From positions 63,206 to 127,205 of IMG/VR virus record IMGVR_UViG_3300002220_000189: 64,000 bases of DNA, one strand, 5' to 3'. The notes below the pieces were generated by a model. It made no database searches. It had not been told where the DNA came from and saw only the letters and a list, made by a program, of their open reading frames with translations. The DNA is from a virus. Its lineage: Duplodnaviria > Caudoviricetes. The translations under genes were made by a program, and so were the position numbers. This document shows positions 12,680-64,000 of the stretch, in pieces. Position 1 is the first letter of the stretch. Each line of letters starts with the position of its first letter.

Positions 12680-12689
12680 AATTTTTACC

Positions 12690-33787: not shown

Positions 33788-33803
33788 CATAACATTAGCC
33801 TTT

Positions 33804-34052: not shown

Positions 34053-34053
34053 T

Positions 34054-36189: not shown

Positions 36190-36210
36190 TCCTAAAATTT
36201 CTTCTAAGAG

Positions 36211-36218
36211 TATTTATA
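36211..36218 (-). promoter_or_regulatory. Late promoter TATAAATA upstream of the HNH gene
   Basis: Exact motif, intergenic. Confidence 0.6.
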
Positions 36219-36264
36219 AAAAACTTTTGTAATTGAGATTATGTGAGTTTTTCCTGTGCCTGTT

Positions 36265-42383: not shown

Positions 42384-42404
42384 TTTATTTTATCCTCTAT
42401 TATT

Positions 42405-42719
42405 TTAGTCTGTTTCTGATACACCAGAACCAAATCTACTAGTATAGGCGTCAGCAACAGCTTTCCATATAATTTTAGATTTTAATGGAAAATTTGTTAC
42501 AAGTGATGAAAGCATATCAAAAGCTTCCTGATATTTTTGTGGTGTATTAGCTCTTTCAAACTTATATTGAATTCTTCTCATTCCAGTAGTTAAACTTGCC
42601 ATAGAACTAGCATCACCAGATGACATATCCAACTCTTTTAAGTATTTCTTAATAACTGTTTTATCTCCAGATTTAAATTTTTTCAAATCTTCTTCATTTA
42701 AAGATCCTATATACTTCAT
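42405..42719 (-). CDS. Hypothetical prohead-region protein
   Basis: Between portal and protease. Confidence 0.55.
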   Translation of the reverse strand: MKYIGSLNEEDLKKFKSGDKTVIKKYLKELDMSSGDASSMASLTTGMRRIQYKFERANTPQKYQEAFDMLSSLVTNFPLKSKIIWKAVADAYTSRFGSGVSETD

Positions 42720-43025: not shown

Positions 43026-45770
43026 TTATTGAACCATATTCATTAAATCTTCTTCTGTCATTTCAGATTCTCCATTTTCACTACCAGCACCTATATTTCC
43101 ACTATTAGCTTCTGCGAATTCATCATTAGTAGTCAATAAATATTGTTTATCTTTCTTAAATCCTGCTTTATTATCCTTTAAATCCAAATCAGTCCATTTT
43201 AAATATCGTTTTATTAAATAATATTTAGAAAACTCTGCATTATTAGATAATGCATTATAATTATTAAATGATTGTTCTAAAAATGCCTGTTCCATAGATT
43301 GTCTATAGTGGGAAGGTGGGGTCATTTTTAATTCAAAACTTCCTTTATTTAATTTATACTGTTTTTTTAAACCTTTAAATTCCAAATGTAATAAAAATAA
43401 ATCTTCAAATTCTCTACAGAATATGTTTTGTTGTCTTTCAAGAAATTTAGCCCATTTTATTTCATCTCTTGTTATTTGACCAGCATTAGATCCACCAAAA
43501 ACTATATTAGCAGATTGCCCTTCACTTTGTTGTTCTACTCTTGACATAGGATATTTTAATGCTCTATAAAGTTTTTTAGCGAAATAATATACATCATCAA
43601 GTTCAGTAAACCCTTTTACATTACCACCAACAGCCTCAATACTTGAACCTCTACCATCACTTGATGTTGGCAAAAAGAAATTTTCCAAAATACTATTACT
43701 GGCAAAGGATAATTTTGCGCCTTTAAAAGATATTGCGAAATTATGATTTCCCTCTACTTCAATACAACCACAGTCATCTCTTTCATCCAAATATTCAATT
43801 CTTACTACTCTATGATTCATATATCCTGCAAAATTCATTCTGAAATCAACATAATCATCAAACCCCATTTCATCAACCATTCGTAACAATATTCCTTTGT
43901 TTAAATGATCAAATTGTTTATTATTAATACATTGATCTTTATTCAATTCTTCCAAATAACCCATAAATTGTTCATTATTACTCAATACTTTCAATAATTT
44001 ATCTCTTGAACATGAACCAGATTCAATAAAAATATCACACATCATTTTAATAGCTGTTTCATCAATCAAAAATGATTTCTTTTTGCTAAAATTAGTTCTA
44101 TTCTCTTCATTTGAAAACCATTCAGTCTTATGTTTTCTAGCAGCCTCTTTTTGTCTTTCTCTTACTTCTGGTATATTGAGAACTTCCAGCATTTTTGCTG
44201 CTTTGTTTTGTATAATATTGGTTTTTGTAACCCATTCGGAATGTTTTTTTCTATATTCAGGATCTTTAAACATCTTTTTAACATTTTCACCATGCATGTG
44301 ATGGTGTTCTTCGTTTGTCATAATTTGTAAATTATCCGGTGAATTATTAAATCTATCAAAATTTTTGTGATGAACTATACCACTATATTTACCATAAATA
44401 TTATTTGCAACAACTCTATGTGTAAATCTCCATTTATCATCTGATGGTGTATATACTTGCTCATACTCAACTTTCTTAGTACCCATAAAACCCATTCTAG
44501 TATATAATGGCATCAATGCAGTACCCTCCTGTAACATATCAGCTCTACATTCACTACCATCTCTAAGAATAAATTTATGATCTGGTGTAGTATCAATAAA
44601 TGCACCATTATCATAATGAACCCTAACCATTTGTTCATTAGGACGCGTTATCATTGCTCTCTTTATTTTACCCGGTTCAATGTTATGTGTTTCTTTATTT
44701 ACGGTATATACCCAATGTTCCTTTCCTTCATTATGTTCCTTAATAATTTCATCTAATGTAAGAAATCTACCATCTAATAAAGGAATTTCTGTATCATGTC
44801 TAATACAAAGAACTTCTGGTTCTTGTGTAAGATTACCAGTTGTAGGATCATATGATTGCTTTTTAATAAATTTTGTTTTGATTTTCTCAACAAATTTCAT
44901 GGCCTTATCACGTGGCATGTTACCAGTATCAATCTTGAAAACTAATCTTTCTGGTGAACGAACAATTCTGTAAATAATTACAGATGTTTCTAATAATTTT
45001 AATTGATTATATGGAACTTTAGCCTTTTCAAGAAATCCAAGTACATCATATCTTGTAACACCATATAAACCATAATTAATATATCCTATTTGTGCTGGTT
45101 CAAATATAATTATTTTTCCTTTATTTTGCTCAGCCTCTGCTCTGCTACTAGGTTTTTTAGAACTTTGTGTCAAATATTGATAAAATGTTGTAATCTTACC
45201 TGTTTTTGGATCATATTCTATATCCATAGTTTCTGAAGGTAATTTTTTAATATTTGCAATTCCATCTCTATTATTTATACTTAATATTCTTTCATAATAT
45301 AATCTACCATCTACTAAAAATGTTCTGAACAAATCCCAAATTTTATTATCTATATCAAGTCTATTATAAAAAAGTTCATTAAATTCACTATGTAAAATAT
45401 TAGTAATATTCTCATTTCTACTAAGTGTTTCGTCCCTAATATCAAGAATAAATGTACCATCGTCTGTACTATCTATTTGTGTAGCTTCATTACATGCATC
45501 TTCAATAATATCGGCTATTTCTGGAGCATCGGCCATACTTCTGTACGTCATAATTTTATTAACTTCATTTTGATGCATTTTATTAATGTAGCGATTATAA
45601 AATTTATTAAGTGTAAGTGTACCTACTTGGCCATATCCTTCAAGAAAGGCCAGATCGTCAATACCTTCACCACCTGGATCTCCTTTGGTAAGTTTACTAC
45701 CAGCTTTATTCTCAAAAGCTTTTATCGCTTCATCAATTCTTTTATTGAAATACTTATCAAACCACGCCAT
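43026..45770 (-). CDS. gp20: Portal protein with intein
   Basis: YRSMA..PEI, VDGRLYY, NQLKLLE.SVIIYRIVRSPERLVFKIDTGNMP, LYRALKYP.SR, ITRDEIKW. Confidence 0.95.
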   Translation of the reverse strand: MAWFDKYFNKRIDEAIKAFENKAGSKLTKGDPGGEGIDDLAFLEGYGQVGTLTLNKFYNRYINKMHQNEVNKIMTYRSMADAPEIADIIEDACNEATQIDSTDDGTFILDIRDETLSRNENITNILHSEFNELFYNRLDIDNKIWDLFRTFLVDGRLYYERILSINNRDGIANIKKLPSETMDIEYDPKTGKITTFYQYLTQSSKKPSSRAEAEQNKGKIIIFEPAQIGYINYGLYGVTRYDVLGFLEKAKVPYNQLKLLETSVIIYRIVRSPERLVFKIDTGNMPRDKAMKFVEKIKTKFIKKQSYDPTTGNLTQEPEVLCIRHDTEIPLLDGRFLTLDEIIKEHNEGKEHWVYTVNKETHNIEPGKIKRAMITRPNEQMVRVHYDNGAFIDTTPDHKFILRDGSECRADMLQEGTALMPLYTRMGFMGTKKVEYEQVYTPSDDKWRFTHRVVANNIYGKYSGIVHHKNFDRFNNSPDNLQIMTNEEHHHMHGENVKKMFKDPEYRKKHSEWVTKTNIIQNKAAKMLEVLNIPEVRERQKEAARKHKTEWFSNEENRTNFSKKKSFLIDETAIKMMCDIFIESGSCSRDKLLKVLSNNEQFMGYLEELNKDQCINNKQFDHLNKGILLRMVDEMGFDDYVDFRMNFAGYMNHRVVRIEYLDERDDCGCIEVEGNHNFAISFKGAKLSFASNSILENFFLPTSSDGRGSSIEAVGGNVKGFTELDDVYYFAKKLYRALKYPMSRVEQQSEGQSANIVFGGSNAGQITRDEIKWAKFLERQQNIFCREFEDLFLLHLEFKGLKKQYKLNKGSFELKMTPPSHYRQSMEQAFLEQSFNNYNALSNNAEFSKYYLIKRYLKWTDLDLKDNKAGFKKDKQYLLTTNDEFAEANSGNIGAGSENGESEMTEEDLMNMVQ
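43695..44807 (-). mobile_element. 371-aa intein with HNH endonuclease in the portal
   Basis: EVL|CIRHDTEIPLLDG; TTPDHKF; VHHKNFDRFNNSPDNL; GCIEVEGNHNF...FASN|SILENFFLP. Confidence 0.9.
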
Positions 45771-46368: not shown

Positions 46369-47935
46369 TTATTTCAAATAAATATAAAAACCCATCATGT
46401 GAAGTAAAATATAATCTATTTTCATCAATTATAGGAAATGTTTTAATGCACCTATCGGTTTTATATGACCATAATTTTTCACCATTTTCAACAGATATAG
46501 CATAAATTGAACCACTATTACAGCCTATAAATACAATATTTTTATATAATGCTGAACCACCAACAATAACATCATCTAATGATGTTATCCAAAGAATATT
46601 ACCCTCGAAATCTACTTTGAACACTTTATGAGAATCTGTTCCAATAATTATACCATCCTCTAAAATTGTAGGTGTAAATCGTATCTGCCTTCCAAGTCTT
46701 TTACACCATATTTTACTACCAGTATTGATATCTAAACAATATAAATAACCATCAAAAGAAGAAGCAAAAACAAATTTTTGTGAAATTATTATATTCTTTA
46801 CAGGACCTCCTGTTTTATAAATCCATTTTGATAATCCATTTACAATGTATACATTATATACACATCCATCATTAGAGCCAACTATTATGGTATTTTTGTA
46901 AGCCAAAGGATTACAAGGTATTGGTCCTTCTGTTTTAAATTCCCAGTTTACATCCCATGAATCCTTCTCTAAACTCAACATACTACCCACAAAATCACCA
47001 TTTTTTCTATAATACTCTGTTGGAATAATAATACTCTTATCTGTTATTATAGAAGAACCATGTATTTGATGGATTATTTTTTTTGATTTCATTTCTTTTG
47101 TTTGAATAGAATATCTATATAAATGTCCTGAATAAGATCCAAAATATATATCTTTATCATGAAATACAGGACACGATCTAGCACCTCTCAGATGAAAATC
47201 TAAATCATATTCTTTTAATACAGTACCTTTATTTTTATCAATAATACAAAATGTTGATCGATCTGTCGGTAAATATATATTATTATCTATAATCATCACT
47301 TTTGGTTGAATAGTATCATCAATAGGATTATTTATCATTATTTTCCATATTAACTTAATATTTAATTTAAGTAATACGGGATTAAACTTCATACCTAGTT
47401 CATTCAAATCATATTCATATTCAAAATTTATATTACTATTTTTAAACTTCTCATGCCCATCTCTTAAAAAGTTAATAAGAAAACAACATCCTACAATGTT
47501 AGAGTTTATTTGATCAATATAATTGTAAGCTAATTCACATGAATATCCTGAATTAAGAATATCATCCACTATAACAACTCTATCATGTAACATTGGTAAA
47601 TATCCACTATATATTTTTCTTGTACCATATTCTTTTCTATTTTTATGAAAGATACATATTTTCATATCTTCATAATTATCGTCTATTGCCGCATCTATTA
47701 TAGATAATGCAAGTGGCGTTCCTGCAAAATCTAACCCCATAATGACAGTTGGTTCATATTTTTTAATTCTATTCCATAACAAAATTCCCATATATTTTCT
47801 ACATTTTGTTTTCAAAGATATTTCTCTAATATCAAAAATCCATCTTATAGGATTTTTATTTCTCCCATATCCCTGCCCCACCTTCAATGCAGTATTTAAT
47901 AATTCCTTTTTTACATATTCTCTTATATTATACAT
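46361..47935 (-). CDS. Type I phosphoribosyltransferase (PyrE-like) fused to a PQQ/BamB-like beta-propeller
   Basis: RKEYGT, VVIVDDILNSGYS (PRPP loop); repeated GSxDGxxYxxxxxxGxxxW blades. Confidence 0.82.
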   Translation of the reverse strand: MYNIREYVKKELLNTALKVGQGYGRNKNPIRWIFDIREISLKTKCRKYMGILLWNRIKKYEPTVIMGLDFAGTPLALSIIDAAIDDNYEDMKICIFHKNRKEYGTRKIYSGYLPMLHDRVVIVDDILNSGYSCELAYNYIDQINSNIVGCCFLINFLRDGHEKFKNSNINFEYEYDLNELGMKFNPVLLKLNIKLIWKIMINNPIDDTIQPKVMIIDNNIYLPTDRSTFCIIDKNKGTVLKEYDLDFHLRGARSCPVFHDKDIYFGSYSGHLYRYSIQTKEMKSKKIIHQIHGSSIITDKSIIIPTEYYRKNGDFVGSMLSLEKDSWDVNWEFKTEGPIPCNPLAYKNTIIVGSNDGCVYNVYIVNGLSKWIYKTGGPVKNIIISQKFVFASSFDGYLYCLDINTGSKIWCKRLGRQIRFTPTILEDGIIIGTDSHKVFKVDFEGNILWITSLDDVIVGGSALYKNIVFIGCNSGSIYAISVENGEKLWSYKTDRCIKTFPIIDENRLYFTSHDGFLYLFEIIE

Positions 47936-51213: not shown

Positions 51214-54200
51214 TCATATTCCATATTTTTCTTCTATCTGTTTTATTATATACTCTGGTGTGATACTTAATGTGCAGATAAAGTTTTTATTTTTTGGGCA
51301 CCAGAACCAATTTCCTCTATCAAACACTATATTATGATCATTAAAACAACCATGACATACATCAGTATTTATTATTCTTAAACAATCTTGCATTTCATGA
51401 TATGGTAAAGTCAATCCTGAAATCATTACTGTAGGAACTCCTAATGCCCATGCCAGCCATGTAGGACCTGAACTAATACCTATAAATAATTCAGAATGTG
51501 CTATATTAGTAATTGTTTTTTCAAGTGGTTTACCCGTTCTGTCAATAATATTCCTTAATTTTGTTCCATCTCTATTGATAACCATTACTTTATAACCCTT
51601 TTTATTATAATGATTTACAATCTGTTGCCATCCTTGAGAATAATTATAATATTTTGCCTGTAATGTAGAATGTTCAGCAATTGTTATATACTTTTCTTTT
51701 ATCGGTCTATCACCACTTACCACTAATTTAGGTTTTACTTCATGGTATTCAAGACCTAATATGTCACTTGCTGCTTGTTGTAATGGTATCAATCTCCAAT
51801 TATTTTTATTTCTATCATAGTTATTATCAGTAACACCCACAGAATATATTGCATGAATATAATCTAAACTCGTTCCGGGATTTATAAAAGTTAAATTAGG
51901 GTAACTATCTTTATCAAACATACGATTATGATGTGTTGATAAATATACCTTACAATTATGTTTTTTCTGGAATATATCAGCATAAGGCATCCATGCAACA
52001 GTATCACCTAACTGTTCACTATCCAATTCAATTATGACATTTTTATTTCTCAAATCAAAATTATAATCTGATATAATCTGATTATTAGAATGTCGTGTAA
52101 CTTGCACATTCCAATTTGTATAATATTGCCTACCATGAGCTACCCATGATGTACCATCTACTTTAATATTATCTTCATATACAAGAAATTTTGTATCATT
52201 ATCAATAAATTTTACATTGAATGTATCACTACTATATCCTGATATTTCACATCTTATTCCTCTATGAAATAAATGATTTATAGAAATATCTTCTTTTTTA
52301 TATTCACTTATTTGAGGTTCTTTTTTTGCTGACAAAATATTGAATATAATATGTCTATAGTAACAATTAAACGAATATCCTGAAAAATATTGTGATATCA
52401 AATTAGAATATATATTGTGCATCATACTAACACTAGTTTCTACATTTGGGAATTTTGATGCCAATCCTTCAAAATAATATACAACAATTTCTTTATATTC
52501 TTTATCTTTATAAAATCCTATTACTTTTTTTAGAAAATCAATATCTTTATCTGCATATATTAATATATAATCAAAATCATCATTAAATTCATTTATTCTC
52601 AAATCATAATCAAAATACAATTTTTTGAGTTCCGTAAAATCTCTATCTTCATTAATTGTAAATAAACCTATCTTGGTATATGGATCAGTATTCAACTCAC
52701 TCAATAAAAATGTGTTTGCTTCCTCATAAATCTTTTCATAATAATCTAATACGGTACCTTTTGGAATATCCTTTCTTTCAATACATATTTGATTTATATT
52801 CTTATGTTGTTTCCATTCTTCATCCGATAATGCTCTATGTGATATACCAGATAATCTTTTTCTGTAATTATACAAATTTCTCTTTATATTCAAATGATTA
52901 CCGTGTTCAGGTAGGATTGAAAAATGTAAACAGTCATTATTACATCCGCCATTATATTCATTTACAAAGAAATCAAGACCATCAATATTTTTATAACATC
53001 TTAAATGGCCCCAAATATGAAGGCTCTTCAATCCCCATAATTCTTCATGTGTATATGTTCTCCCTTCAAGAAAAGCGCCATAATTACCCTGAAATGACAT
53101 ACAACTCGGATTTAATATTCCACCATTAAATGTTTCATTATATGACACATTATCACATGACATTGATACAATATTATCATCTTTATATTCATTCAAAAGT
53201 CTATTATAAACTTCTAAAGCTCTTAAATTTACAACATCATCAGCATCAACTGTTATGATATAATCACATTCTGGAGAAATAAATCTTTGTGGTTGCCAGA
53301 ACATTTCCTTTTTGAAATTCTGTTTCACATAAATCATTTTAGAATATTTCTTACAGTAATACATCAACTTTTCTTTCGTATTATCCGTACTATCGTCATC
53401 TGTAACAAACCATACCCAATTTGTATAAGTCTGATTTATTACACTTTCTATAGTTTCGTCCATTACATCTGACACATTATAGAAAGTTGTGTTTATACCG
53501 AATTTGAACTTTATACTTTTATCAAACATAGATAATAACATATTAGAATCTTTATCAATATTACCAAATAACCAATGTATATTAGGATCGTCTCCAAAAT
53601 TTGTTCTTATAGTTTCAATATCAGAACATAAACAAGGAATATCATAACTTAGCGCTTCTTTCAAACTTATAGGATTGAGTTCTGCTTTAGACGGTAAAAT
53701 ATGAACATCAGCAATATTCAAGAAACTATCAACATCATCTCTTTCACCCCATAGAATACAATTCAGAGGTTTTTTAGGAAGTATTTTAGACCAATAATCT
53801 TTAAAATTATCTGCCATATTTCCTATAAAATGAAATTGAAAATTTTTATCCTCTAACATTTCAGCAATTTTGAAGGTATATCCCTGATTTTTATTCTCTG
53901 TAAACAATCCAACCTGAACTACATGAATTTTCTTCGGATCTAACTTTAATTTTTTTAAGTAAAAATCCTTATCCTGTTTCTTTTTAGGAGGTGCATATTC
54001 ATATAATTCCTTGTTTATATCAATAGCTCTATACGTTTTGAAATGATGTTTATTACAAAATACAAATTTGTCTGGTATAAATTGCTTATCTTTCGGATCA
54101 TATGTTGATGTATGTGACGTTTCATGAATAAAGTAATTTCTGAAACAACTATATATTTCCTTTTGTATATTTTCTGATAATGCCCAAAATAAGGTAGGTT

Positions 54201-56379
54201 CTTCCTGTAAATGTAGAATATCAGGCTTAAATTGATTAATTTCTTCAAGTAGTTTCTTATTATCTTCATATACTGCAATAAAATTCTTACCTAAAATTCT
54301 TATCATTTCATTTCTCTGAACAACATATGCGTCTCCAGAATACGAATTTTCTATAACAGCAACATTCAATCCTTTTTGAACATCATCTTTTATTTTCTCT
54401 AACACATATTTTGGCATACCACCAGTAGAAACATGAGGTAATAAATACATTACCTTATTAAGATTAATAAATTTTTTATTCAATAAATAAATAACATATA
54501 ATTTTACTTTTGTTGAACCACCACTTTTATAATATACATAAAAATCATCTGTTTTAAATTTCTTTATATAATCATCAATATTTTCACTAAATTCTAAATG
54601 TAATTCCATAACAACTTTTTTTACTCTATTCTTTATTATTTCAATATTTTCATCTTCAAATAAAAATACCTCAGCTCCTTCACAATCAATCTTTACCAAA
54701 TCAATAATTTCATCATTATATTCATTACATATATCTTCAAATGATATTGTAGTAGTAGTTACAGTATTTCCTTCTATTTCATTATATATTTTTTCTTTGA
54801 ATATTGTTTGTGCGCCGGAGTCTGCTGTTGTTGAAATATAAAAATCAATCTCATCACCTGAAGTAGAAAATAATGCTTTATTGATTATCTTCATTTTATC
54901 AAGATTATTTTTATTCAATATCATATTAAATTCATTTAATCTATTATCCGGTTCAATACAAATAAGATTTTCTACATTATTATGAAATGCCAGTAATGCA
55001 AAAAATCCAATATTAGAGCCTATATCAATACAATTTTTTACATTTTCAAATAATTTGGGTTTATAATACATTTCATCAATAAAAATTTCTTGATATATAT
55101 ACCAAGGAACATCTCTTATTTTATCTAAATCGTCTGATGTTAAATGTTTCAAATAACTACTTATTGGATATAACGTCTGAACATCAAATATCTGTTCATC
55201 ATATTCATTAGCAATACTAATTTTTATCTTAATCTTCTTAAAAAATAATGCTAATACATATGCAAAAAATATCCCAGATGGTCCTCCTAAGTGTATAATA
55301 TTATCACATATTTGAACATCACCATCTTTCTCTGATATACCATAAAGTTCTAAACGAATTTCACCACCCTTAAAAACTTCTAATGTAACTTTATGATTTT
55401 CAGTTTTATCATGTTTAAACAAATTTACTTTATTTCCAATCATTTCATTTCCTTTTAATATATAAGTCTTTACTAACTCATACTGCTCATCTGTAACTCT
55501 ACCATGTAAAAATTTTATATTATCTATATCTTGCTTTGCAGGAATTTTACAAAAATCATCCCAAAAATATCCTTTATCTTTGGGATGTGTATAACAATAA
55601 ATAAATTTCATAAAATCTTCTTTTGAAGTCATTTTATCATAAACATTTATCCAAGGCAAATTAATAGATATTTGCTTTAAATTATCATTTTTTCCATATT
55701 TCCATAATATAACATTTAATATTGTTTCATCATTGAATGCTGCATAATCTTTCCAGTTATTGATTATTCTCTTGTCATAACATAATTCTTCCCATTCCTT
55801 CAAAATATCTTTACAATTATTATTGAATAAGATTATATTCGATTGTTTGTAATTTTTCCTTATCTCAAAAGGTAATCCTAATAACTTAAATAATGGCGCC
55901 TCTAAACATCTTGTAATATCAAATACTTTATCATCTATCCAAGGATTGCCCTTACCATTATATATCATAAATTCATGAATATTTTCTCCTAATAATGGAT
56001 AATCGGTAAGTCTTGTCTTAAAATTAAATACATCATCACTTCTTTTAGTAGCAAGACAATCACCATCAACAAAACAATATGTATGATCCCCATTTTTAAG
56101 AACTTCATTACATATTTTAGATTTTATAAACAGCATATTAGCCCTTACTGTTTCTGTATTACCAAGGATTTTGCGGTCACTATCGGTATTTCTTTCAAAT
56201 TGTTTTATATTGAAGTTATATCTGATTGGAATTACATTCTTGAATTTTGATTTATAGGTAAAATTGATAGTATAATAATATACCATTTTGTTAGAAAACA
56301 TTATTAGTGTTTCAAACAACTTTTCCATTACTGGTAAATAATTTTTATCACTATGCACAACATAACAATCCATACACAT
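51214..56379 (-). CDS. Multidomain glycosylation enzyme: GT-A-like + FkbM methyltransferase + GT4 + GT2 + autotransporter O-heptosyltransferase-like
   Basis: FVDGD...FNDETILN; IDIGSNIG...KIDCEGAE; STGGMP...KNQ...ELNPISLKEA; VTDDDSTD...DADD; DSEQLGDTVAWMPY...IGISSG..WLAWA...CHGC...C...C. Confidence 0.82.
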   Translation of the reverse strand: MCMDCYVVHSDKNYLPVMEKLFETLIMFSNKMVYYYTINFTYKSKFKNVIPIRYNFNIKQFERNTDSDRKILGNTETVRANMLFIKSKICNEVLKNGDHTYCFVDGDCLATKRSDDVFNFKTRLTDYPLLGENIHEFMIYNGKGNPWIDDKVFDITRCLEAPLFKLLGLPFEIRKNYKQSNIILFNNNCKDILKEWEELCYDKRIINNWKDYAAFNDETILNVILWKYGKNDNLKQISINLPWINVYDKMTSKEDFMKFIYCYTHPKDKGYFWDDFCKIPAKQDIDNIKFLHGRVTDEQYELVKTYILKGNEMIGNKVNLFKHDKTENHKVTLEVFKGGEIRLELYGISEKDGDVQICDNIIHLGGPSGIFFAYVLALFFKKIKIKISIANEYDEQIFDVQTLYPISSYLKHLTSDDLDKIRDVPWYIYQEIFIDEMYYKPKLFENVKNCIDIGSNIGFFALLAFHNNVENLICIEPDNRLNEFNMILNKNNLDKMKIINKALFSTSGDEIDFYISTTADSGAQTIFKEKIYNEIEGNTVTTTTISFEDICNEYNDEIIDLVKIDCEGAEVFLFEDENIEIIKNRVKKVVMELHLEFSENIDDYIKKFKTDDFYVYYKSGGSTKVKLYVIYLLNKKFINLNKVMYLLPHVSTGGMPKYVLEKIKDDVQKGLNVAVIENSYSGDAYVVQRNEMIRILGKNFIAVYEDNKKLLEEINQFKPDILHLQEEPTLFWALSENIQKEIYSCFRNYFIHETSHTSTYDPKDKQFIPDKFVFCNKHHFKTYRAIDINKELYEYAPPKKKQDKDFYLKKLKLDPKKIHVVQVGLFTENKNQGYTFKIAEMLEDKNFQFHFIGNMADNFKDYWSKILPKKPLNCILWGERDDVDSFLNIADVHILPSKAELNPISLKEALSYDIPCLCSDIETIRTNFGDDPNIHWLFGNIDKDSNMLLSMFDKSIKFKFGINTTFYNVSDVMDETIESVINQTYTNWVWFVTDDDSTDNTKEKLMYYCKKYSKMIYVKQNFKKEMFWQPQRFISPECDYIITVDADDVVNLRALEVYNRLLNEYKDDNIVSMSCDNVSYNETFNGGILNPSCMSFQGNYGAFLEGRTYTHEELWGLKSLHIWGHLRCYKNIDGLDFFVNEYNGGCNNDCLHFSILPEHGNHLNIKRNLYNYRKRLSGISHRALSDEEWKQHKNINQICIERKDIPKGTVLDYYEKIYEEANTFLLSELNTDPYTKIGLFTINEDRDFTELKKLYFDYDLRINEFNDDFDYILIYADKDIDFLKKVIGFYKDKEYKEIVVYYFEGLASKFPNVETSVSMMHNIYSNLISQYFSGYSFNCYYRHIIFNILSAKKEPQISEYKKEDISINHLFHRGIRCEISGYSSDTFNVKFIDNDTKFLVYEDNIKVDGTSWVAHGRQYYTNWNVQVTRHSNNQIISDYNFDLRNKNVIIELDSEQLGDTVAWMPYADIFQKKHNCKVYLSTHHNRMFDKDSYPNLTFINPGTSLDYIHAIYSVGVTDNNYDRNKNNWRLIPLQQAASDILGLEYHEVKPKLVVSGDRPIKEKYITIAEHSTLQAKYYNYSQGWQQIVNHYNKKGYKVMVINRDGTKLRNIIDRTGKPLEKTITNIAHSELFIGISSGPTWLAWALGVPTVMISGLTLPYHEMQDCLRIINTDVCHGCFNDHNIVFDRGNWFWCPKNKNFICTLSITPEYIIKQIEEKYGI

Positions 56380-56418: not shown

Positions 56419-57675
56419 TTAAATCCGTAATTTTAGATTTTCGGAAATACCATTGAGTATTCTGAGTATTTCATTTGAACCACTAATATTTCGTATTTTT
56501 GTATTTATTATATTATACATTTCATAATTCAATAGAAATTGCTCTTTATTCAACAATAACATATAATATATCATATCTTTCCATACTCTTGGGATATTCA
56601 TAGAATTTTCAAACTGTCTTACTTCAGTATTTGTTTCCATATAATTTTTATCTTTATCGAATTTTTTAAAACTACTATTTGTTAGGGTTAGCCATCGTAA
56701 TGAAAATTCGATATTGTTATAATCTTTAATTTTATCAATAAATTTATCAAAACTTCTGATATCATCATCAATCAAATTATCCCATCCTAGTATTATAGAC
56801 AAATATACATTACATCCAGAATCTAATAAATATTTTAGTGTTTTTAAATATTCTTCTAATGTAATACCCTTTTTCATATACATTAACATTCTATCTGATA
56901 AAAATTCACCGCCAATTCTAAAACATAATCTTTGAGGGGTTTTAATTTCGTGAAAAAAAGATTTTAATTCTGTAATTTTATTACCACTTGCCCTCCAATA
57001 AAATGTGTGGTATATATTAGACTTTTCATTTATTATAGGAAGTAACAATTTGATATCTTCGGGAAGCATATCGGGTGAAGTATAATATGCAGTAAGTTTA
57101 TTATCTATATTTGGTATATTAGAATATGTATATACTGTATCACCTAAAAAAATGGGTGAAGAACAAAATATACATTTTCCCCAAAAACATGGCTTATTAA
57201 ACGATACTGAAAATAAAATATCAGAATTTGAAATATTATTTGGTATTTTTAACCCCCATTCTCTTTCATCATAGTTCTTAAAAATACTTCTAAGATTATC
57301 TATAACAATTTTAAAATTTTTTCTTTGTGGTAATAATAATGGATTCACAAATGCGTGAAATAAATATGCTGCTGGACCGCCAACAATAAAATCAACATCA
57401 GGTAATTCTAATGATGCTAAATATACATATACAGGCTCCATTTCAAAAATACATGAAACATACACCTTATCTGTGTTATATCTCTTAATGCTTTCTACTA
57501 ATATATTTTTAGGTATTGTTGGGTCCCACTTATCCATTACATATTTTTTATTGGCATTAACTGGAATCTGTATTAAATTTTCACATAAATTATATACTGT
57601 AGAAAATCCGTTGCTCAAATATATAGTGTCTTTATCGAGAGAATTATTATATCCTTCTACAAATAATTCTTTCAT
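56419..57675 (-). CDS. Radical SAM protein, cobalamin-binding-like architecture
   Basis: FIVGGP upstream of CFWGKCIFC; GGEFLSDRML..MKKG. Confidence 0.75.
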   Translation of the reverse strand: MKELFVEGYNNSLDKDTIYLSNGFSTVYNLCENLIQIPVNANKKYVMDKWDPTIPKNILVESIKRYNTDKVYVSCIFEMEPVYVYLASLELPDVDFIVGGPAAYLFHAFVNPLLLPQRKNFKIVIDNLRSIFKNYDEREWGLKIPNNISNSDILFSVSFNKPCFWGKCIFCSSPIFLGDTVYTYSNIPNIDNKLTAYYTSPDMLPEDIKLLLPIINEKSNIYHTFYWRASGNKITELKSFFHEIKTPQRLCFRIGGEFLSDRMLMYMKKGITLEEYLKTLKYLLDSGCNVYLSIILGWDNLIDDDIRSFDKFIDKIKDYNNIEFSLRWLTLTNSSFKKFDKDKNYMETNTEVRQFENSMNIPRVWKDMIYYMLLLNKEQFLLNYEMYNIINTKIRNISGSNEILRILNGISENLKLRI

Positions 57676-57676
57676 A

Positions 57677-58636
57677 TTATCCCCCTAAAATCAAATTAAT
57701 AAATTCATTTTTGAACGCATTATAATCAAATTTCAAATTAACGAATTTAGATATTTGTTCAGAAAGATTAGTATAATCTGGATTTTCTTTTAATAATTCT
57801 TCAATATTAATCAAAAAATCATCTACTTTATTACAACCAAAATAAAGACCTTCGGCCCAATCTATCCATGATGTATCAAATGATGTAGAATCTCTATCAT
57901 TAACAACCAATGGTATACAACCACAAAAAATAGCTTGTAATAATGACCAATTAAAGGGCTCCCATCCATTATGTGGTAAAACATAATATTTATATTCGTT
58001 AAATATTGATGAAACCATATTTAAAGGCACCTTATTCTTATATAATATATATTTATTGCTAAGAACTAACTTTCTGTATTTATCATCAACTTGTATAGGA
58101 AACCCCCCATAACAATCAATATAGAATTTATTCTTTTCAATAAATTCTTCTGAAAATTTATGTGGGGCTAAAGAACCAAGATAAAGTAATTCTTTTTTTC
58201 TCATATTCCAAGGTATCATTATTTTATATATTGAGGGATCAGTTGGTATATAAAATATTCTTATATTATCTGATGAAAACTTGAAATTATAATTGATAAT
58301 TATAATTAAATCAAAATATTTATAAATTATATCATTTATTTGACCACCATGAAAAATAAGTATCAATTTTGTGCTTGGTTTTACCGCTTTATATTCAATG
58401 GCAGAAATAATCAAATTATCAAAAGAATCATTGATTATAATCATTTCGGGTGCTATATCTTCTATTTTATTGAATAATTCAGTAACATTATATTGTTTAT
58501 TAATTTCTACTTTATCAATTTCATCACATTCGGCCATCCAATCAGAAAAAATATTACCTATATAACCTACTGAACAATCTAAATCATAATTAAGATATAC
58601 AATCTTCCTTTTTTTCATCTTTTTTATCATCCTCAT
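57677..58636 (-). CDS. Glycosyltransferase (GT4/GT-B-like)
   Basis: LLYLGSL.PHK...YYVLP...EPFNWSLLQAIFCGCIPLV. Confidence 0.7.
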   Translation of the reverse strand: MRMIKKMKKRKIVYLNYDLDCSVGYIGNIFSDWMAECDEIDKVEINKQYNVTELFNKIEDIAPEMIIINDSFDNLIISAIEYKAVKPSTKLILIFHGGQINDIIYKYFDLIIIINYNFKFSSDNIRIFYIPTDPSIYKIMIPWNMRKKELLYLGSLAPHKFSEEFIEKNKFYIDCYGGFPIQVDDKYRKLVLSNKYILYKNKVPLNMVSSIFNEYKYYVLPHNGWEPFNWSLLQAIFCGCIPLVVNDRDSTSFDTSWIDWAEGLYFGCNKVDDFLINIEELLKENPDYTNLSEQISKFVNLKFDYNAFKNEFINLILGG

Positions 58637-59117
58637 CTAAAAATTTTAGATAATATTTACTGATTTCAAATATTTGTGAATGGTGATTTTCTATGTGTTT
58701 CATTCTCTCAATTAAAACTAATATATTGGTTACCAATTCTATTGATGTTAAATGAAGTTTGAAGTATCTCTCAATAAGAACAATATCTTGTTTAATATCA
58801 TCATCTTGATATACAAGATTATTCCAATTATATAACAATAAGATATATGAATTTACAAACATTGAAAGTTTATCATCTATTGGTAAATTAAGAAAACATT
58901 TACCCAATAGTTTGATCGTATTTTTTATTCTATGTATTAATTTACCTTCGTCATCTGGATATATAATATCTAAACTTTCAATATTTTTTATATAATTATC
59001 ACTAACGTAATTGGCAACATCAACAAAATCTATAAATTCAGGTCCGCAAAATTCTATTAAGTTATAAGGTGGACTAGATATAACAACATCTCTATTTTTT
59101 ATAATTTCTTCTATCAT
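58590..59117 (-). CDS. Hypothetical protein in the radical SAM cluster
   Basis: ORF overlapping both neighbours. Confidence 0.55.
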   Translation of the reverse strand: MIEEIIKNRDVVISSPPYNLIEFCGPEFIDFVDVANYVSDNYIKNIESLDIIYPDDEGKLIHRIKNTIKLLGKCFLNLPIDDKLSMFVNSYILLLYNWNNLVYQDDDIKQDIVLIERYFKLHLTSIELVTNILVLIERMKHIENHHSQIFEISKYYLKFLDEDDKKDEKKEDCIS

Positions 59118-60379
59118 AATAAACCCTCTCTTTCATAAAAAACTATTGATCTATTTTTATTTACATCAAGTTGTGGCATTAAAAATTTTAATACATCATT
59201 TTTATGCAAAAATCTTAAAATGGTGAATACTTTAACATGATACAATCTACACACCGAAGGTATAGGTAAAAACATATTACCTGTTGTTTCATATTGAGAA
59301 CCAAGACATCCAAAAGAGCAAAAATGTTTTATTAAGCATTTTTCACAATATGGTATATTATGTATTTTCATTGCATTCATCGCTAAAAATAATTCTACAT
59401 TCTTTTCCTTTATTCCTGTCAATGTTTTACCATCGGTTTCATATTCATATAATAAGAATTTATCGTATTTAAGTCGATGACATGGATATGTTTTCAAGTC
59501 TATTACACCAATCTGATGTACAGATTGTGCGCTGCATGTTAAACCCGACATATGTTCTATAAAAATTTTAGAGATAGTGTCGACATCCCTAATTAATTTT
59601 TCAGCATATTTTTCACCATTTCCACTATTATTTAATCCATATTCCATTAAAAACTTTAAGAATTTAATATAATGTATTAAATGTTCTTTCTTCCAACCTG
59701 CATTACGTACTTCTAAATATGAAAGATTTGTAATATCAATATTATATTGTAAAAGCATCTCCATAAACCAAAGATGATTCTGTATAGAACATTCTATACC
59801 ATTAAAGTATATCATTGGATGAAGTCCATAATGTAAATATTTATGTGATTTAAACAGTTCATGATAAAAATCATCTGTATACATATTACCATTTCTCAAT
59901 GGCCTGTTATTATTATCCATATATTTACCATCTATTGATGCACTTAATTTAATATCTACATTATTCTTTTTACCTAACTCTATTAAATCAAAAACTTTTT
60001 GTTTTCTTTTTTCATCAAATATAAAAGACACTGCAGTTGGAATAGAAATGAAGAAATTTTTTTGCACTTTATTTTCTATTATATATTGTATCACATTATA
60101 AGAATAATCCTTCATCAATAATTCCCCACCAAATAAACACAATGAAGGACTATACGAATTTTCATTCAACCAATTTATAATTATTTCAACATTCTTCAAT
60201 ATACTACTTTCACTATAAATATCTTTAGTGTACTTTTTCCCAACATTATTGATATAGCAATATGTACACTTATGATCACACGAATAATCAAAATTTAATT
60301 GTAATAAATTATGATTTCTATTAGAATTTTCCGGAGTCCATTTTCTACGATATCTTTTCAAAACATTTTCTATTATCAT
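59114..60379 (-). CDS. Radical SAM enzyme with SPASM domain
   Basis: CDHKCTYC, FGGE, SIDG; C...PCHR...CEKCLIKHFCSFGC...C. Confidence 0.9.
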   Translation of the reverse strand: MIIENVLKRYRRKWTPENSNRNHNLLQLNFDYSCDHKCTYCYINNVGKKYTKDIYSESSILKNVEIIINWLNENSYSPSLCLFGGELLMKDYSYNVIQYIIENKVQKNFFISIPTAVSFIFDEKRKQKVFDLIELGKKNNVDIKLSASIDGKYMDNNNRPLRNGNMYTDDFYHELFKSHKYLHYGLHPMIYFNGIECSIQNHLWFMEMLLQYNIDITNLSYLEVRNAGWKKEHLIHYIKFLKFLMEYGLNNSGNGEKYAEKLIRDVDTISKIFIEHMSGLTCSAQSVHQIGVIDLKTYPCHRLKYDKFLLYEYETDGKTLTGIKEKNVELFLAMNAMKIHNIPYCEKCLIKHFCSFGCLGSQYETTGNMFLPIPSVCRLYHVKVFTILRFLHKNDVLKFLMPQLDVNKNRSIVFYEREGLL

Positions 60380-60383
60380 GATA

Positions 60384-61577
60384 TTATATTCCCTTTATCT
60401 TCTCAAAATATCCATTACCTAAAAGTAATATAATAGATACAGGAATTAAAAATTCTGAGGTTGTCAACACCAAAAACTCTGATATGCAATACATAACTGC
60501 TTTAATAAAAATTGCTAATAATAATGCATTGTTTATATCTTTATATTCTGATAATATTTGCCCATTATCAGCTAATTCTTTTATTAGACATAAATTAGTA
60601 TTTAAATATAACATATTGAAATGATGATAACTAAAGCCCTTATATTTATATAGTTCCATACTAATGTGGGTTTCATTATCTTTAGGCTCTGTAAATAATC
60701 TATGACATAAATAAATGCTATTATTATCTATAGCTACTGATGACTTACCTGAAGAACAAGTATACCTAAAAATATTATCTATATGATATAAATCATTCAA
60801 TATATTCTTAAAACTACGTTTATATGGAATACCCAATTTTGAATTATTGAATATATCAGCAAAAGCAGATAATAATTCACCATCTTCTTTAGTATACTTA
60901 TATGATAAATCAAATGTAGGATGTGGGATTATATCTATTATAATATTTTTCCCTATATCTTTATATCTCTTACTTAACATATCAAAAAAACATAAATATT
61001 CTTGCATACTATTAGAAGTTTCCACAAAATATTTTATATTATTAATGTTAAAAGTTACTTTATTTCTCAATTTTATATTTTTAATTGATAAATCTATATT
61101 TTCTAAAAAATTATATAGAATTTCTAATCCCTTCAAAACTTTCTGATGTGTTCCTCTTCCACGATTTAAGTCAGTATTATATTCATCACCATCTATAGAA
61201 AATTGGATATCCAAATTTACACGACCTTTGGCTAAATCAACTTTATTCAAAGTTTCTATAAATTGTATTATTTTTTCTACTTTGGTTAAATTTGTTGAAA
61301 ATAATATAGTATCTAATTTAGGAAATTTTTTGAGAAGAATGTTTAAATAATTTGAAAGGTAATCTAAATTATAAGAAGGTTCTGCACCCCATAAAGATAA
61401 CGATGTAAATTCTAAATTTAATTCACTCAGTCTATCAATAAAATCACCAGATTTAATAAAATCTTCTATTGATTTGCAAATAAAATCTTTGTTATAATAG
61501 CAATAATTACAATTTAAATTACATTTTTCTGAAAAAAACAGGCCAACATTTAAAGTATCCATAAACATCCTATACAA
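60384..61577 (-). CDS. Radical SAM enzyme with a truncated (twitch-like) auxiliary domain
   Basis: CNLNCNYC, WGAEP, STN, QFSIDG; CSSG...LCHR. Confidence 0.88.
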   Translation of the reverse strand: MYRMFMDTLNVGLFFSEKCNLNCNYCYYNKDFICKSIEDFIKSGDFIDRLSELNLEFTSLSLWGAEPSYNLDYLSNYLNILLKKFPKLDTILFSTNLTKVEKIIQFIETLNKVDLAKGRVNLDIQFSIDGDEYNTDLNRGRGTHQKVLKGLEILYNFLENIDLSIKNIKLRNKVTFNINNIKYFVETSNSMQEYLCFFDMLSKRYKDIGKNIIIDIIPHPTFDLSYKYTKEDGELLSAFADIFNNSKLGIPYKRSFKNILNDLYHIDNIFRYTCSSGKSSVAIDNNSIYLCHRLFTEPKDNETHISMELYKYKGFSYHHFNMLYLNTNLCLIKELADNGQILSEYKDINNALLLAIFIKAVMYCISEFLVLTTSEFLIPVSIILLLGNGYFEKIKGI

Positions 61578-62646
61578 TCATAAAATCACTTATTTTTTTC
61601 TTACCAGTAATAATCGCTGTTAAATCTCCATTGGAAATATAAGTGATATTTTTGGCAAAAACATTTTTATGGATGGTTAAATCAGATCCCTTTATTTCCA
61701 CCATATCTGTTTCTTCAAAACCCACTAAAATACTTTCAACACATGAAGTTGTATAATCATAAGTAACATTATAAACATTTAATAACGCAAGATTGTTATT
61801 TATATCCTCATCGGTGGCAGATTTCCCGGTAATTATATTTTTAAATCTTACTTCATATTGTAGACCAATCGAATTTTCTTCTTTTAATAAAATTAAAGAA
61901 TCTATAAACTTTAATATTTTATCTTTAGATTCTTTTTTAATATTGAATGAATACTTTCCTACTCCTAAAAAATTTTCTACTATGTGTTCAGAATTATATA
62001 AATCTCTAATATAAAATCGTGTCATTGATCTATATGAATCTAAATATTTTGAAAATAAATTATATGCATTTTCACCACATCGTATCAATATATCCTCACC
62101 TATAAGATTCATAGAACTTCTAAAAAAATCAATATGATAATTACACTGATCTAGAATCTCAGTCTTTATAATATATAATCTTTCTAATTGTTTAAATGGA
62201 TAAATATATTCTCTTAGAAACACATTCCCATATATATTTTTTTCCAGAACTGATGTACAAACACCATCCTCATTTGCTTGTTCTATAAGTTCATCAAAAG
62301 CTGTTTTACCTTCTATATAGTAAAGTAATTTATTATTATAACATTTATTACTAATGAAACGATCATCTATTATAATAACATCAAATAGAGAATACTCCTC
62401 TTGTACTAAATATCTTTTTAAAACAGAGAAGGATGTAATAGATTCCTCGATCTCAGTAGTAATAACACCTATAATAAAATCATATTTTTGTAATAATTTT
62501 AATGCTATAAAATCTTTATTATACCCTTGTATATTTTTATAATCCAATATATTATATAGCATAACTGCTATTTTACAATTTATTGGTAAAGATTTATATA
62601 TATTATCTAACTCATCTATTGAATATATTATTTTAGTTTTTTTCAT
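61570..62646 (-). CDS. Hypothetical protein in the radical SAM cluster
   Basis: 358-aa ORF with an AGGAG RBS; no motif recognised. Confidence 0.6.
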   Translation of the reverse strand: MKKTKIIYSIDELDNIYKSLPINCKIAVMLYNILDYKNIQGYNKDFIALKLLQKYDFIIGVITTEIEESITSFSVLKRYLVQEEYSLFDVIIIDDRFISNKCYNNKLLYYIEGKTAFDELIEQANEDGVCTSVLEKNIYGNVFLREYIYPFKQLERLYIIKTEILDQCNYHIDFFRSSMNLIGEDILIRCGENAYNLFSKYLDSYRSMTRFYIRDLYNSEHIVENFLGVGKYSFNIKKESKDKILKFIDSLILLKEENSIGLQYEVRFKNIITGKSATDEDINNNLALLNVYNVTYDYTTSCVESILVGFEETDMVEIKGSDLTIHKNVFAKNITYISNGDLTAIITGKKKISDFMIV

Positions 62647-62660
62647 TATATAATCTCCTT

Positions 62661-62846
62661 CTATGCGACATAGCTACCATTATGTGTTGATGAATAATTA
62701 TAATTTGAACCATAATATGTTCCATAATGTGTTTGACAATATGTAATATTATTATTTAGCCAATCAGACGCAGTTCTAACTTCATTTATATCACTATACT
62801 CTACATTTGTATATTGTGTTATACTTTGAGCCCATGAATATCCCAT
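62661..62846 (-). CDS. Small Tyr/His/Ser-rich protein, candidate radical SAM substrate
   Basis: WAQSITQYT...INEVRTASD...CQTHYGTYYGSNYNYSSTH. Confidence 0.7.
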   Translation of the reverse strand: MGYSWAQSITQYTNVEYSDINEVRTASDWLNNNITYCQTHYGTYYGSNYNYSSTHNGSYVA

Positions 62847-62868
62847 AATTTAATCAAACTCCTATTAA

Positions 62869-63198
62869 CTAACCATCTCCACCACTATATGAACAATAAC
62901 CATACCACGCTGTTGACATATGTGTAGATCTGTAAGAGGAATAATATATATAATGTGTAGAACATACAGTTACACACAGATTTCTTCTATCATACGCCTC
63001 ATCATACGCTGTTCTAAATTGTGTTAAAATTGTACTGTTAACCGATGTACTGTATTGTGTCGGTAATGTATAACTACCTGCACTTAAATCAGTTCTAGAT
63101 CTTAAATCATTAATATTTGAAGATATCTCAGGATATACATCTGCCTTTACAGATGCAGTATATTGTGTGATAGATTTAGTCCATGTTGTATATGCCAT
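62869..63198 (-). CDS. Small Tyr/His/Ser/Cys-rich protein, paralogue of 62661..62846, candidate radical SAM substrate
   Basis: WTKSITQYT...INDLR...FRTAYD...CSTHYIYYSSYRSTHMSTAWYGYC. Confidence 0.7.
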   Translation of the reverse strand: MAYTTWTKSITQYTASVKADVYPEISSNINDLRSRTDLSAGSYTLPTQYSTSVNSTILTQFRTAYDEAYDRRNLCVTVCSTHYIYYSSYRSTHMSTAWYGYCSYSGGDG

Positions 63199-63224
63199 AC
63201 CACTTATTTTCCCCTCTCATCAAC

Positions 63225-63238
63225 TATTTATATTTATA
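63225..63238 (-). promoter_or_regulatory. Two overlapping late promoters TATAAATA heading the radical SAM cluster
   Basis: tatttata at 63225-63232 and 63231-63238. Confidence 0.65.
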
Positions 63239-63257: not shown

Positions 63258-64000
63258 TTATTTTATTTTTATCCAATGTCTATCATTTACTTCAATATCA
63301 TTCCAGAATTTTTTATATTCTTTTTTGATATATGTACCAATAATTCTTTCTGGATAATGTATAACATCTACTCTCACCATTTCTGTAAGTTCTCCGTCAA
63401 CCGTACAAGTCAATGGTGTACCTGTTTCATATATATTATCAACATATGCTAAAACATATCCAGCAACAGAAATGGGAATTTGTTTTTTATGCCCTTTGTT
63501 ACCCACACCAAAACCATATGTATCTGTTGCTATGCCTAATATTCCCTTTTCACAATATTCTCTTGATTTTCTTACCATACCATTATCATAAATATATGCT
63601 TTACCATATTCAATATCCAGCATATCATTATCAGTTTCAAAATAATCTGCTATATCATTATAAACGGCATTATATACTTTACCAGAACTTAATCTACCAT
63701 GAGTATTTGGTGTTTGTTCAGGAGCATTTTGACTTGAATGCCACATAATAACAAGATTTTGATCGGCACCATTTTTAAAATAAAATTGTGAATTATCATC
63801 TACACCATCAGAAGCTGTTGTTGATGCTGTAAATGTTGATGCACCAGCTAAAACTGCTGATGTGCCAGAACTTCCTGATGTGCCAGAACTTCCTGATGTT
63901 CCTGAACTGCCTGATTCACCCGATGTTCCTGAACTGCCCGATGTTCCTGAACTGCCCGATGTTCCTGAACTGCCTGATGTGCCAGAACTTCCAGAACTTC
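63258..64000 (-). CDS. C-terminal part of a fibre-like protein with G-(S/T)-S repeats and an intramolecular chaperone/auto-cleavage (peptidase G2-like) domain; starts beyond the window
   Basis: Frame stays open upstream of 63746 to the window end; VYNAVYNDIADYF...GILGIATDTYG...PISVAGYV. Confidence 0.75.
   Translation of the reverse strand, partial: SSGSSGTSGSSGTSGSSGTSGSSGTSGESGSSGTSGSSGTSGSSGTSAVLAGASTFTASTTASDGVDDNSQFYFKNGADQNLVIMWHSSQNAPEQTPNTHGRLSSGKVYNAVYNDIADYFETDNDMLDIEYGKAYIYDNGMVRKSREYCEKGILGIATDTYGFGVGNKGHKKQIPISVAGYVLAYVDNIYETGTPLTCTVDGELTEMVRVDVIHYPERIIGTYIKKEYKKFWNDIEVNDRHWIKIK
63858..64000 (-). repeat. Collagen-like Gly-X-Ser tandem repeat (GSSGTS)n
   Basis: 9/18-bp periodic sequence translating to SSGSSGTSGSSGTSGSSGTSGSSGTSGESG... 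Confidence 0.9.

Follow-up and report, generated by a model that had tools for sequence, protein, structure and literature searches.

What do radical S-adenosylmethionine (radical SAM; rSAM) enzymes, which as peptide maturases are familiar from cellular natural-product and cofactor pathways, do among the structural genes of a large phage? The question is raised by a stretch of 64,000 nucleotides (hereafter the window) that forms the final 64 kb of a 127-kb IMG/VR virus contig, IMGVR_UViG_3300002220_000189, estimated to be ~60% complete. Two small open reading frames (ORFs) in this window, for proteins of 109 and 61 amino acids (aa) that we call Lead proteins, head a cassette containing three rSAM genes and follow directly on a tail-fibre-like gene. 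An earlier note, made from the letters alone, had proposed that the phage cross-links, methylates and glycosylates these small proteins in the manner of a peptide that ribosomes synthesize and that is then post-translationally modified (RiPP), and all of the ORFs, cysteine motifs and spacings that it described were found on the minus strand at 56419-63238. Our results partly support the cassette being an rSAM-dependent, RiPP-like system of protein modification that is widespread in uncultured large phages, the modification itself being proposed. We hold, with slightly more belief than doubt, that two of the enzymes, rSAM A and rSAM B, would cross-link the Lead proteins and that these would stay as fibre- or virion-associated proteins.

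To see how general this arrangement is, hidden Markov models (HMMs) were built from the window proteins, and the first 49 sources were scanned for gene content. The GenBank phage collection held no DNA or protein match to the region, to rSAM B or to the 109-aa protein. Homologues of rSAM B at 27-39% identity were found in 43 IMG/VR loci, 16 contigs of metagenome-assembled genomes (MAGs) and several Logan, ENA and NCBI contigs, with rSAM A adjacent in every one of these loci. The MAG contigs are assigned to scattered taxa (Woesearchaeota, candidate phyla radiation groups, Thermoplasmata and Omnitrophota) and some are identical to viral records, for which reasons we read them as mis-binned phage DNA. 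The conserved set is present in ~60 metagenomic phage loci, several of them duplicates, and has a constant core of rSAM A, rSAM B and a protein that we call H175, accompanied usually by two Lead genes and very often by a fibre gene with a C-terminal domain that we call FibC.

The Lead genes themselves were traced in both directions. Starting from the enzymes, proteins matching the Lead profile lie directly beside the rSAM pair in 29 of the 49 scanned sources, mostly as one long and one short protein. The order varies between loci (designated here by L numbers): L016, L017 and L021 read A-H175-Lead-Lead-B-H175, so that each rSAM has its own H175 copy, and in L012, L048 and L076 the Lead genes come after H175. 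Among the loci without a Lead-HMM match, L034 and L054 encode, directly upstream of rSAM A, repeat proteins that have the same composition, L030 has three Lead-like genes 5 kb downstream, and the remaining ones are cut by contig ends or use an alternative genetic code. Starting instead from the Lead N-terminal profile, 708 clusters (at 50% identity) were matched at E <= 1e-3 among 1.84 billion representatives, and the 150 clusters listed of these 708 are all small proteins of 75-404 aa. Four look-ups were started from Lead proteins, and both of those with sufficient flanking DNA (L075 and L076) show Lead, Lead, A, B and H175. The co-occurrence of the small ORFs with the rSAM pair, which the earlier note had named as its check, holds in both search directions and across dozens of phages, and the pattern that it said would speak against the idea, rSAM homologues occurring apart from the small ORFs, is not what we found, since the Lead-started look-ups again gave the full cassette. 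As a separate observation, several cassette contigs have ORFs that are open only under stop reassignment (TGA in L033, L035 and L057; TAG in L014, L039, L046 and L050), from which it follows that the cassette spans phages with alternative genetic codes.

Examination of the Lead proteins revealed a shared anatomy. The two window proteins align directly only weakly (E ~0.03-0.1), and their status as true paralogues, proposed earlier, follows from the match of a single family profile to both (5e-08 for the 109-aa and 2e-14 for the 61-aa protein); a homologue of the longer one is encoded at L011:1941-2348 (E 3e-10). The family is built on an N-module of ~35 aa, whose alignment consensus is M-x-(F/Y)-x-W, ~10 residues, then D-x-x-E-(I/L)-R-x-x-x-D-x-x-x-D-N, and which occurs twice in the long paralogue and once in the short. 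The window pair conforms: the 109-aa protein has two N-terminal W-motif modules and then a Cys/Tyr/Ser-rich tail, and the 61-aa protein has a single module, a junction Cys (YCQTHY) and a Tyr/Ser/Asn/Gly tail. In the AlphaFold2 model of the latter, residues 1-35 are confident (predicted local distance difference test score, pLDDT, ~90) and form an extended segment packed on a helix (residues 17-37), with the tail disordered. A junction Cys lies within 12 residues past the N-module in 168 of 182 members (92%), in the motif C-x-[TSA]-[HDY]-[NYD]-[SA]-[TS].

The tail beyond this junction is of low complexity, with a median length of 88 aa and a maximum of ~350 aa, and is composed chiefly of S (13%), D (12%), Y (10%), N (10%), T (9%) and G (9%), with a mean of ~2 Cys per protein. 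Its autocorrelation peaks at 4, 8 and 12 residues, giving a period of 4 or 8; the repeat unit is (Y/H/V)-(D/N)-(S/T)-x, position 2 of the period-4 register being Y, D, N, V or H. Motifs of the aromatic-X-S/T kind occur in the tails, though not in all. The putative substrates are not short aromatic peptides: the proteins of this family are 61-404 aa long and have extended, acidic repeats of Ser, Thr, Asn and Tyr. Pfam gave no match for either window protein, the CXXX-repeat target family PF27846 included; in NCBIfam the Lead proteins match no model, and eight Lead or repeat proteins of other loci fall into no relevant family. The Lead proteins do not show the Cys at every fourth residue that marks CXXX-repeat targets (PF27846/TIGR04114). 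A likeness of the tails to staphylococcal SD-repeat glycosylation substrates or to RTX-like Ca-binding rolls was also considered; profile support for it is weak or none, and it is retained only within the reading, given below, of Lead proteins as unmodified fibre accessories. One TAG=Gln-recoded phage of 145 kb (L014) does carry a separate rSAM gene with a CXXX-repeat target (PF27846) 2-4 kb upstream of its A-B-H175 genes, and a SAM synthetase (MetK) gene right after the cassette (these features lie at L014 positions 3960-6301 and 11946-13028).

Some Lead proteins hold additional domains. At L031:4920-6125 (protein P0094), a LamG/concanavalin-like lectin domain (PF13385, 2.9e-16) is inserted between two N-modules, which hints at a carbohydrate-binding, adhesin-like role for this member. 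In three others (L011:1103-1939, P0113 and P0164) the repeat tail is immediately followed by a Hint/intein-like domain that starts with a Cys (CFPAGIKIL-type start). The Hint matches are sub-threshold in Pfam (E ~4e-4 to 3e-3) and recurrent in position, which suggests self-cleavage or a thioester-mediated transfer of the C-terminus of the modified tail.

Comparison of close phages revealed N-modules that are 78-89% identical, enzymes at ~76% and Lead tails at 49-52%, and at the level of sequence such a conserved N-module beside a divergent tail is a leader/core pattern. The layout is also that of RiPP-type precursors, with a leader-like conserved part, a core-like variable part and a gene adjoining that of the enzyme. 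This pattern and the maturase-like enzymes described below would suit a classical RiPP, in which a host or unlinked protease removes the N-module and lysis frees the modified tail as a bioactive peptide able to diffuse, which might serve as an antibacterial, in signalling or in superinfection exclusion, among other roles; lysis would make an exporter unnecessary, and the Hint-like self-cleaving domains after the tail in some members would mean that processing occurs. We nevertheless judge such a freed peptide unlikely, as the tails reach ~350 aa, a lectin-type domain stands between two N-modules in one member, the operon is a late structural one in which these genes directly follow the fibre gene, and no protease or RiPP-type exporter is conserved across the ~60 loci, in line with what had been said of the window, namely that it holds no transporter or leader peptidase. 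Exporter-like genes are single cases: TatC and TatA genes stand directly upstream of the Lead genes in L075 (258-1244), and the 234-kb phage contig L011 has an ABC importer-like set (NMT1-type binding protein, ABC permease and ABC ATPase; 8842-11448) between its cassette and a giant glycosyltransferase/methyltransferase gene, followed by a gene for a SPRY-domain protein.

Turning to the enzymes, the membership of all three in the radical SAM class, read earlier from their motifs, is borne out by Pfam and NCBIfam. For rSAM A, PF04055 scores 36.9 bits against a cut-off of 29.5; for rSAM B it scores 20.5 bits, below the cut-off, and Fer4_12 passes (24.3 against 22). Among 14 homologues of rSAM B, C34, C38 and C41 together with C282, C300, C345, C348, C354, C358 and C377 are invariant, so that its C-terminal seven-Cys SPASM motif, of the kind that binds two auxiliary 4Fe-4S clusters, is complete, at a TIGR04085 score (23.6 against 27) slightly under the cut-off. 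In rSAM A, three further Cys (C274, C291 and C364) are invariant besides the CxxxCxxC motif among 32 homologues, and these being the only conserved extra Cys, the protein fits a single auxiliary cluster in a twitch-like domain rather than a SPASM domain. The best named relatives in NCBIfam, all sub-threshold, are the ranthisynthase PapB (1.4e-18 for rSAM B and 3.7e-13 for rSAM A), HxsB (9.5e-11) and QhpD (1.4e-10) for rSAM B, and HxsC (5.7e-5) for rSAM A, with nif11-type maturase and SCIFF families likewise among them. The best solved relative of rSAM B is CteB (5WGG, 1.9e-10), and a phmmer search of rSAM A against PDB sequences returned no match. The pair is nearest to peptide and protein maturases (PapB, HxsB/HxsC, QhpD and CteB) and not to sugar or cofactor enzymes.

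The third constant component, H175, belongs to a conserved family of ~170 aa with NWN and PPAFELS-HYL motifs that is present in 33 of the 49 sources and always adjoins an rSAM gene. Its AlphaFold2 model (pLDDT 85) is an all-helical bundle with no beta sheet. Foldseek returned nothing for it at E <= 0.001, and its best VIA match, a helical protein of a jumbo phage at Z 9.7, is within noise for helical bundles; an Atlas search gave no usable match and NCBIfam no match, the HxsD model included. The cluster motifs begin at residue 19 of rSAM A and residue 34 of rSAM B, leaving no space for an N-terminal RiPP recognition element (RRE) in either enzyme, and we propose that H175 may be the enzymes' partner in place of such a domain.

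The fibre gene upstream bears on where the products may act. It encodes collagen-type G-x-x repeats and then a C-terminal domain of ~160 aa, FibC, whose members have no Pfam match. The FibC profile aligns to residues 689-743 of the phi29 gp12 pre-neck appendage, spanning its self-cleavage site and autochaperone region (E 3.9e-4, a weak match over 55 residues that include an invariant Asp), and from this match the gene probably encodes a trimeric fibre that sheds a C-terminal chaperone. The likeness to the phi29 gp12 autochaperone (PDB 3GQH, 6QZ9) concerns the fibre only and consists in the match over the known self-cleavage site; it differs in that the match is weak and covers about one third of the domain, cleavage here being predicted from sequence alone. 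A FibC gene stands directly upstream of the cassette in 29 of the 49 sources, the window included, in keeping with the fibre location that had been put forward for the cassette. The Lead N-module was also considered as the head of the fibre itself, and this found no support at HMM level, the Lead HMM giving no significant match to FibC fibre proteins; the fibres of L023 and L025 do show a similar-looking W-T...N motif.

With the fibre also syntenic, the rSAM pair could act elsewhere, on the fibre protein, a glycan, a lipid or a cofactor, and the Lead proteins could share the operon as fibre accessories that stay unmodified, whether as mini-fibres, adhesins or assembly factors. Glycosyltransferase genes and a giant multi-glycosyltransferase protein nearby would agree with such a division of labour, as would the likeness of the Lead N-module to a common motif of fibres, seen in that of L023, and acidic 8-mer repeats that could fold unaided. 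We find this improbable all the same, for A and B have in the Lead genes their nearest and most constant neighbours, which lie between the two in L016, L017 and L021; many loci lack the fibre or have it at a distance; peptide-modifying SPASM enzymes, rather than sugar or cofactor enzymes, give the best family matches; and the near-invariant junction Cys has no obvious structural reason.

We know of few examples of whole-protein modification by such enzymes, namely QHNDH, MCR and CrpA (2026). In QHNDH and in the CrpC/CrpA system of Methanococcus voltae, SPASM enzymes install thioether cross-links in entire proteins, and CrpA has its N-terminus in common with CrpB (PMC13692751). The phage cassette resembles CrpC/CrpA and QhpD/QhpC in that a SPASM rSAM gene lies beside those of repeat-rich substrates, putative ones in the phage, two paralogues have a common N-terminus, no dedicated protease or exporter is known and the product stays a protein, as is proposed for the phage system. 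It differs in its tails, which are Cys-poor (~2 Cys), acidic and rich in Ser, Thr, Asn and Tyr, in having two rSAMs, a new helical partner and no RRE, in being phage-encoded within a tail-fibre operon, and in sequence scores that are all far below family cut-offs. The His-Xaa-Ser system (HxsA, the SPASM enzyme HxsB, HxsC and HxsD), defined by Haft and Basu and uncharacterised (mentioned in PMC9062424), likewise has a repeat protein of aromatic-X-Ser period, a SPASM and non-SPASM rSAM pair and a small extra protein. However, rSAM B scores 41 bits against HxsB (cut-off 370) and rSAM A 22 against HxsC (cut-off 268), the phage repeats are (Y/H/V)-(D/N)-(S/T)-x and not H-x-S, and with Lead and H175 matching no NCBIfam model the cassette falls outside the models that define the system (TIGR03977/03978/03979/03976). 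A third comparison is with the enzymes that form triceptides, or three-residue cyclophanes, of which XyeB, YhhB, HaaB and HtkB act repeatedly on aromatic-X-X motifs (PMC11499958). Many Lead tails have a Tyr or His every 4 residues (Y-D-S, Y-N-S, H-D-S), but the rSAM matches to XyeB (TIGR04496) and YhhB (NF041707) are weak (E 4e-4 to 0.05; 12-19 bits against the 445-450 of the synthase models), many repeat units have Val or Asp in place of the aromatic residue, and the tails are far longer than known cores. Our literature search turned up no account of rSAM/SPASM cassettes with repeat proteins in phages.

Taking these comparisons together, we favour a reading in which this late-operon cassette of the tail-fibre module would make post-translationally cross-linked small proteins. 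The Lead paralogues would be the substrates of rSAM A and rSAM B, with the N-module, in condensed form MxFxW...I..D.xE.R...D...DN, as the recognition handle for the enzymes, and the two rSAMs would abstract hydrogen atoms from the Lead tail and install intramolecular cross-links in it. Of the likeliest links, the first would be a ranthionine-type thioether from the junction Cys, suggested by the junction motif, near-invariant as C-x-[ST]-[HD]-[NYD]: its C-x-[TSA]-[HDY]-[NYD] part, present once at the junction in 92% of the Lead proteins, we take to resemble the Cys-X3-Asp sites of PapB-type enzymes, whose precursors have Cys-X3-Asp/Glu, the Lead tail otherwise having few Cys. The second would be side-chain cross-links recurring along the repeat units, or some other radical modification of these units, an iterative reaction being suggested by the periodicity of the tail, as in TvgB on TVGG repeats (PMC9062424) or in triceptide synthases on aromatic-X-X motifs (PMC11499958). 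The product probably remains a protein, since no protease or exporter is conserved, the context is late and structural, one member has a LamG insertion and the tails are large, and it would decorate or cap the adjacent fibre or the virion. A bolder version, that in large phages of anoxic habitats a hitherto undescribed RiPP-like pathway builds a ladder of radical-SAM cross-links, by a chemistry new for Cys-poor (Y/H/V)-(D/N)-(S/T)-x repeats, into small hypervariable proteins of the fibre or virion surface with H175 replacing the RRE, we regard as possible though doubtful; were it true, the cross-linked tail, which evolves fast, would serve in host recognition or protection, and natural-product chemistry would be serving virion architecture.

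Several observations weigh against cross-linking by the rSAM pair. The tails are poor in Cys, at ~2 per protein, so that thioethers cannot explain the long repeats; to our knowledge no characterised rSAM chemistry acts on (Y/H/V)-(D/N)-(S/T)-x units; and some Lead members, such as that of L021, have few aromatic residues. A Ca-binding beta-roll or a fibre shaft could form from the acidic 8-mer repeats with no cross-link at all, and the N-module, in its resemblance to the W...helix motif of phage fibres, may be a structural element for trimerisation or attachment and not a leader. The maturase matches are far below curated cut-offs (for PapB NF047865, 340 bits against 67 for rSAM B and 49 for rSAM A), and Pfam and NCBIfam searches of the cassette proteins gave no match to an RRE family.

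The repeats might also undergo an iterative modification other than cross-linking, for instance epimerisation from L to D, or carbon chemistry of the cyclopropylglycine or another type on Val, Ile or Tyr, by which a disordered tail would become a protease-resistant rod; this is a variant of the favoured reading with a different chemistry. TvgB makes cyclopropylglycine from Val in repeated TVGG units (PMC9062424), and many Lead tails contain T-V-D-S/T-V-N-A units, in a register with Y, D, N, V or H at position 2. The two rSAMs showed no specific likeness to TvgB or to epimerases, and such a modification is indistinguishable from cross-linking in silico; we give it the least credence of the alternatives.

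Beyond the constant set, the window cassette contains accessory genes that in this phage probably add further tailoring, namely those for a GT1-type glycosyltransferase and the third rSAM. The part of the earlier claim that placed the glycosyltransferase in the pathway gains support from L075:2612-5116, which encodes an 834-aa fusion of rSAM A with GT1, both Pfam domains being above cut-off, and such a fusion ties glycosylation to the pathway, by gene architecture, in some phages; elsewhere the glycosyltransferase is only an accessory gene, its family being found in five other cassettes (L026, L028, L051, L076 and, in this fused form, L075). The B12-type, methylating function assigned earlier to the third rSAM becomes less certain. 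Its PF04055 score of 23.9 bits is below the cut-off, its variant Cx4Cx2C motif, invariant in homologues, is unusual, and no PF02310 B12-binding domain was detected in it or in 14 homologues; a weak resemblance to class-B enzymes shows in family matches for 12 of 18 and for 8 of 18 members, at scores far under the cut-off, and PDB profile matches are to RimO, ELP3 and OxsB. With such a gene near the cassette in only three other loci (relatives lie beside it in L011, as two copies, and in L016), that rare occurrence, the lack of a detectable B12 domain and the unusual motif make methylation a guess.

Directly 3' of the third rSAM gene is that of a 1721-aa protein with Pfam GT4/GT1, GT2, FkbM methyltransferase and GT9-like domains, which may be a further tailoring enzyme and may build a glycan on a virion protein; L011 has a similar giant gene near its own cassette. 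The 358-aa protein encoded between the Lead genes and rSAM A is without a match in Pfam, NCBIfam and PHROG, lacks homologues in all related loci and has only Atlas matches below a useful score, and by these searches its gene is unique to this phage.

As for the setting, PHROG matches in the window to portal, major head protein, large terminase, tail sheath and lytic tail protein identify it, by homology, as the structural region of a T4-like myovirus. Its GC content is ~27%, the minus strand carries all genes, and this phage's DNA was found only in sequencing runs of one study, labelled hydrocarbon metagenome, with no RNA run listed as containing it. The features below are listed in the order of transcription, and intergenic spacing across 56419-63238 ranges from -47 to +39 nt. 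Of the tandem promoters described earlier, two overlapping TATAAATA copies do precede the 109-aa ORF, ~27 nt upstream of its start, and no separate copy precedes the 61-aa ORF. The octamer is 1.4-fold enriched (46 seen against 32 expected in a window of this composition), and with the motif so common in AT-rich window DNA its assignment as a late promoter is only suggestive.

Table 1. Features of the rSAM cassette and its neighbours in window coordinates, in order of transcription.
Feature	Coordinates	Strand	Basis or remark
Tail-fibre-like gene	63258..64000	-	Truncated by contig end; Pfam Collagen match, PHROG tail-fibre matches
Two overlapping TATAAATA motifs, T4-late-promoter-like	63225..63238	-	5' of 109-aa gene
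Long Lead protein, 109 aa	62869..63198	-	Lead family HMM E 5e-08
Short Lead protein, 61 aa	62661..62846	-	Lead family HMM E 2e-14
358-aa protein, no known function	61570..62646	-	This phage only
rSAM A, 397 aa	60384..61577	-	CNLNCNYC; PF04055 above cut-off
rSAM B, 421 aa	59114..60379	-	CDHKCTYC + CxxCx5CxxxC; 7-Cys SPASM domain
H175, 175 aa, putative helical partner	58590..59117	-	Conserved family of ~170 aa
Accessory GT1-type glycosyltransferase, 319 aa	57677..58636	-	PF00534 sub-threshold
Accessory third rSAM, 418 aa	56419..57675	-	CFWGKCIFC; Cx4Cx2C motif
1721-aa multidomain glycosyltransferase/methyltransferase protein	51214..56379	-	Pfam; directly 3' of third rSAM

Elsewhere in the window, a 914-aa portal ORF (43026-45770, minus strand) contains an HNH endonuclease segment (approximately residues 436-574) between portal-homologous parts, as matched in PHROG. 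Three large genes between the terminase genes (32170-38244, minus strand) match PHROG families of unknown function, and one of them additionally matches a family labelled sporulation protein. Upstream of the window, the same phage contig has three further radical-SAM-like ORFs (G000:C1:36215-36712, 42352-42633 and 47242-47559).

On this evidence from genes and their order, phages probably apply chemistry of the natural-product style to a small protein of their own. If so, the cassette would add to the rSAM modification systems a large phage-specific family that comprises 708 or more substrate clusters and brings a new module for recognition, a new helper protein and probably new chemistry, and would place such chemistry in the host-recognition module of virions. 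The system bears on how SPASM enzymes act on Cys-poor repeats, on how substrates are recognised without an RRE and on whether phages chemically harden or diversify their fibre-associated proteins, and at five small genes the cassette is directly testable.

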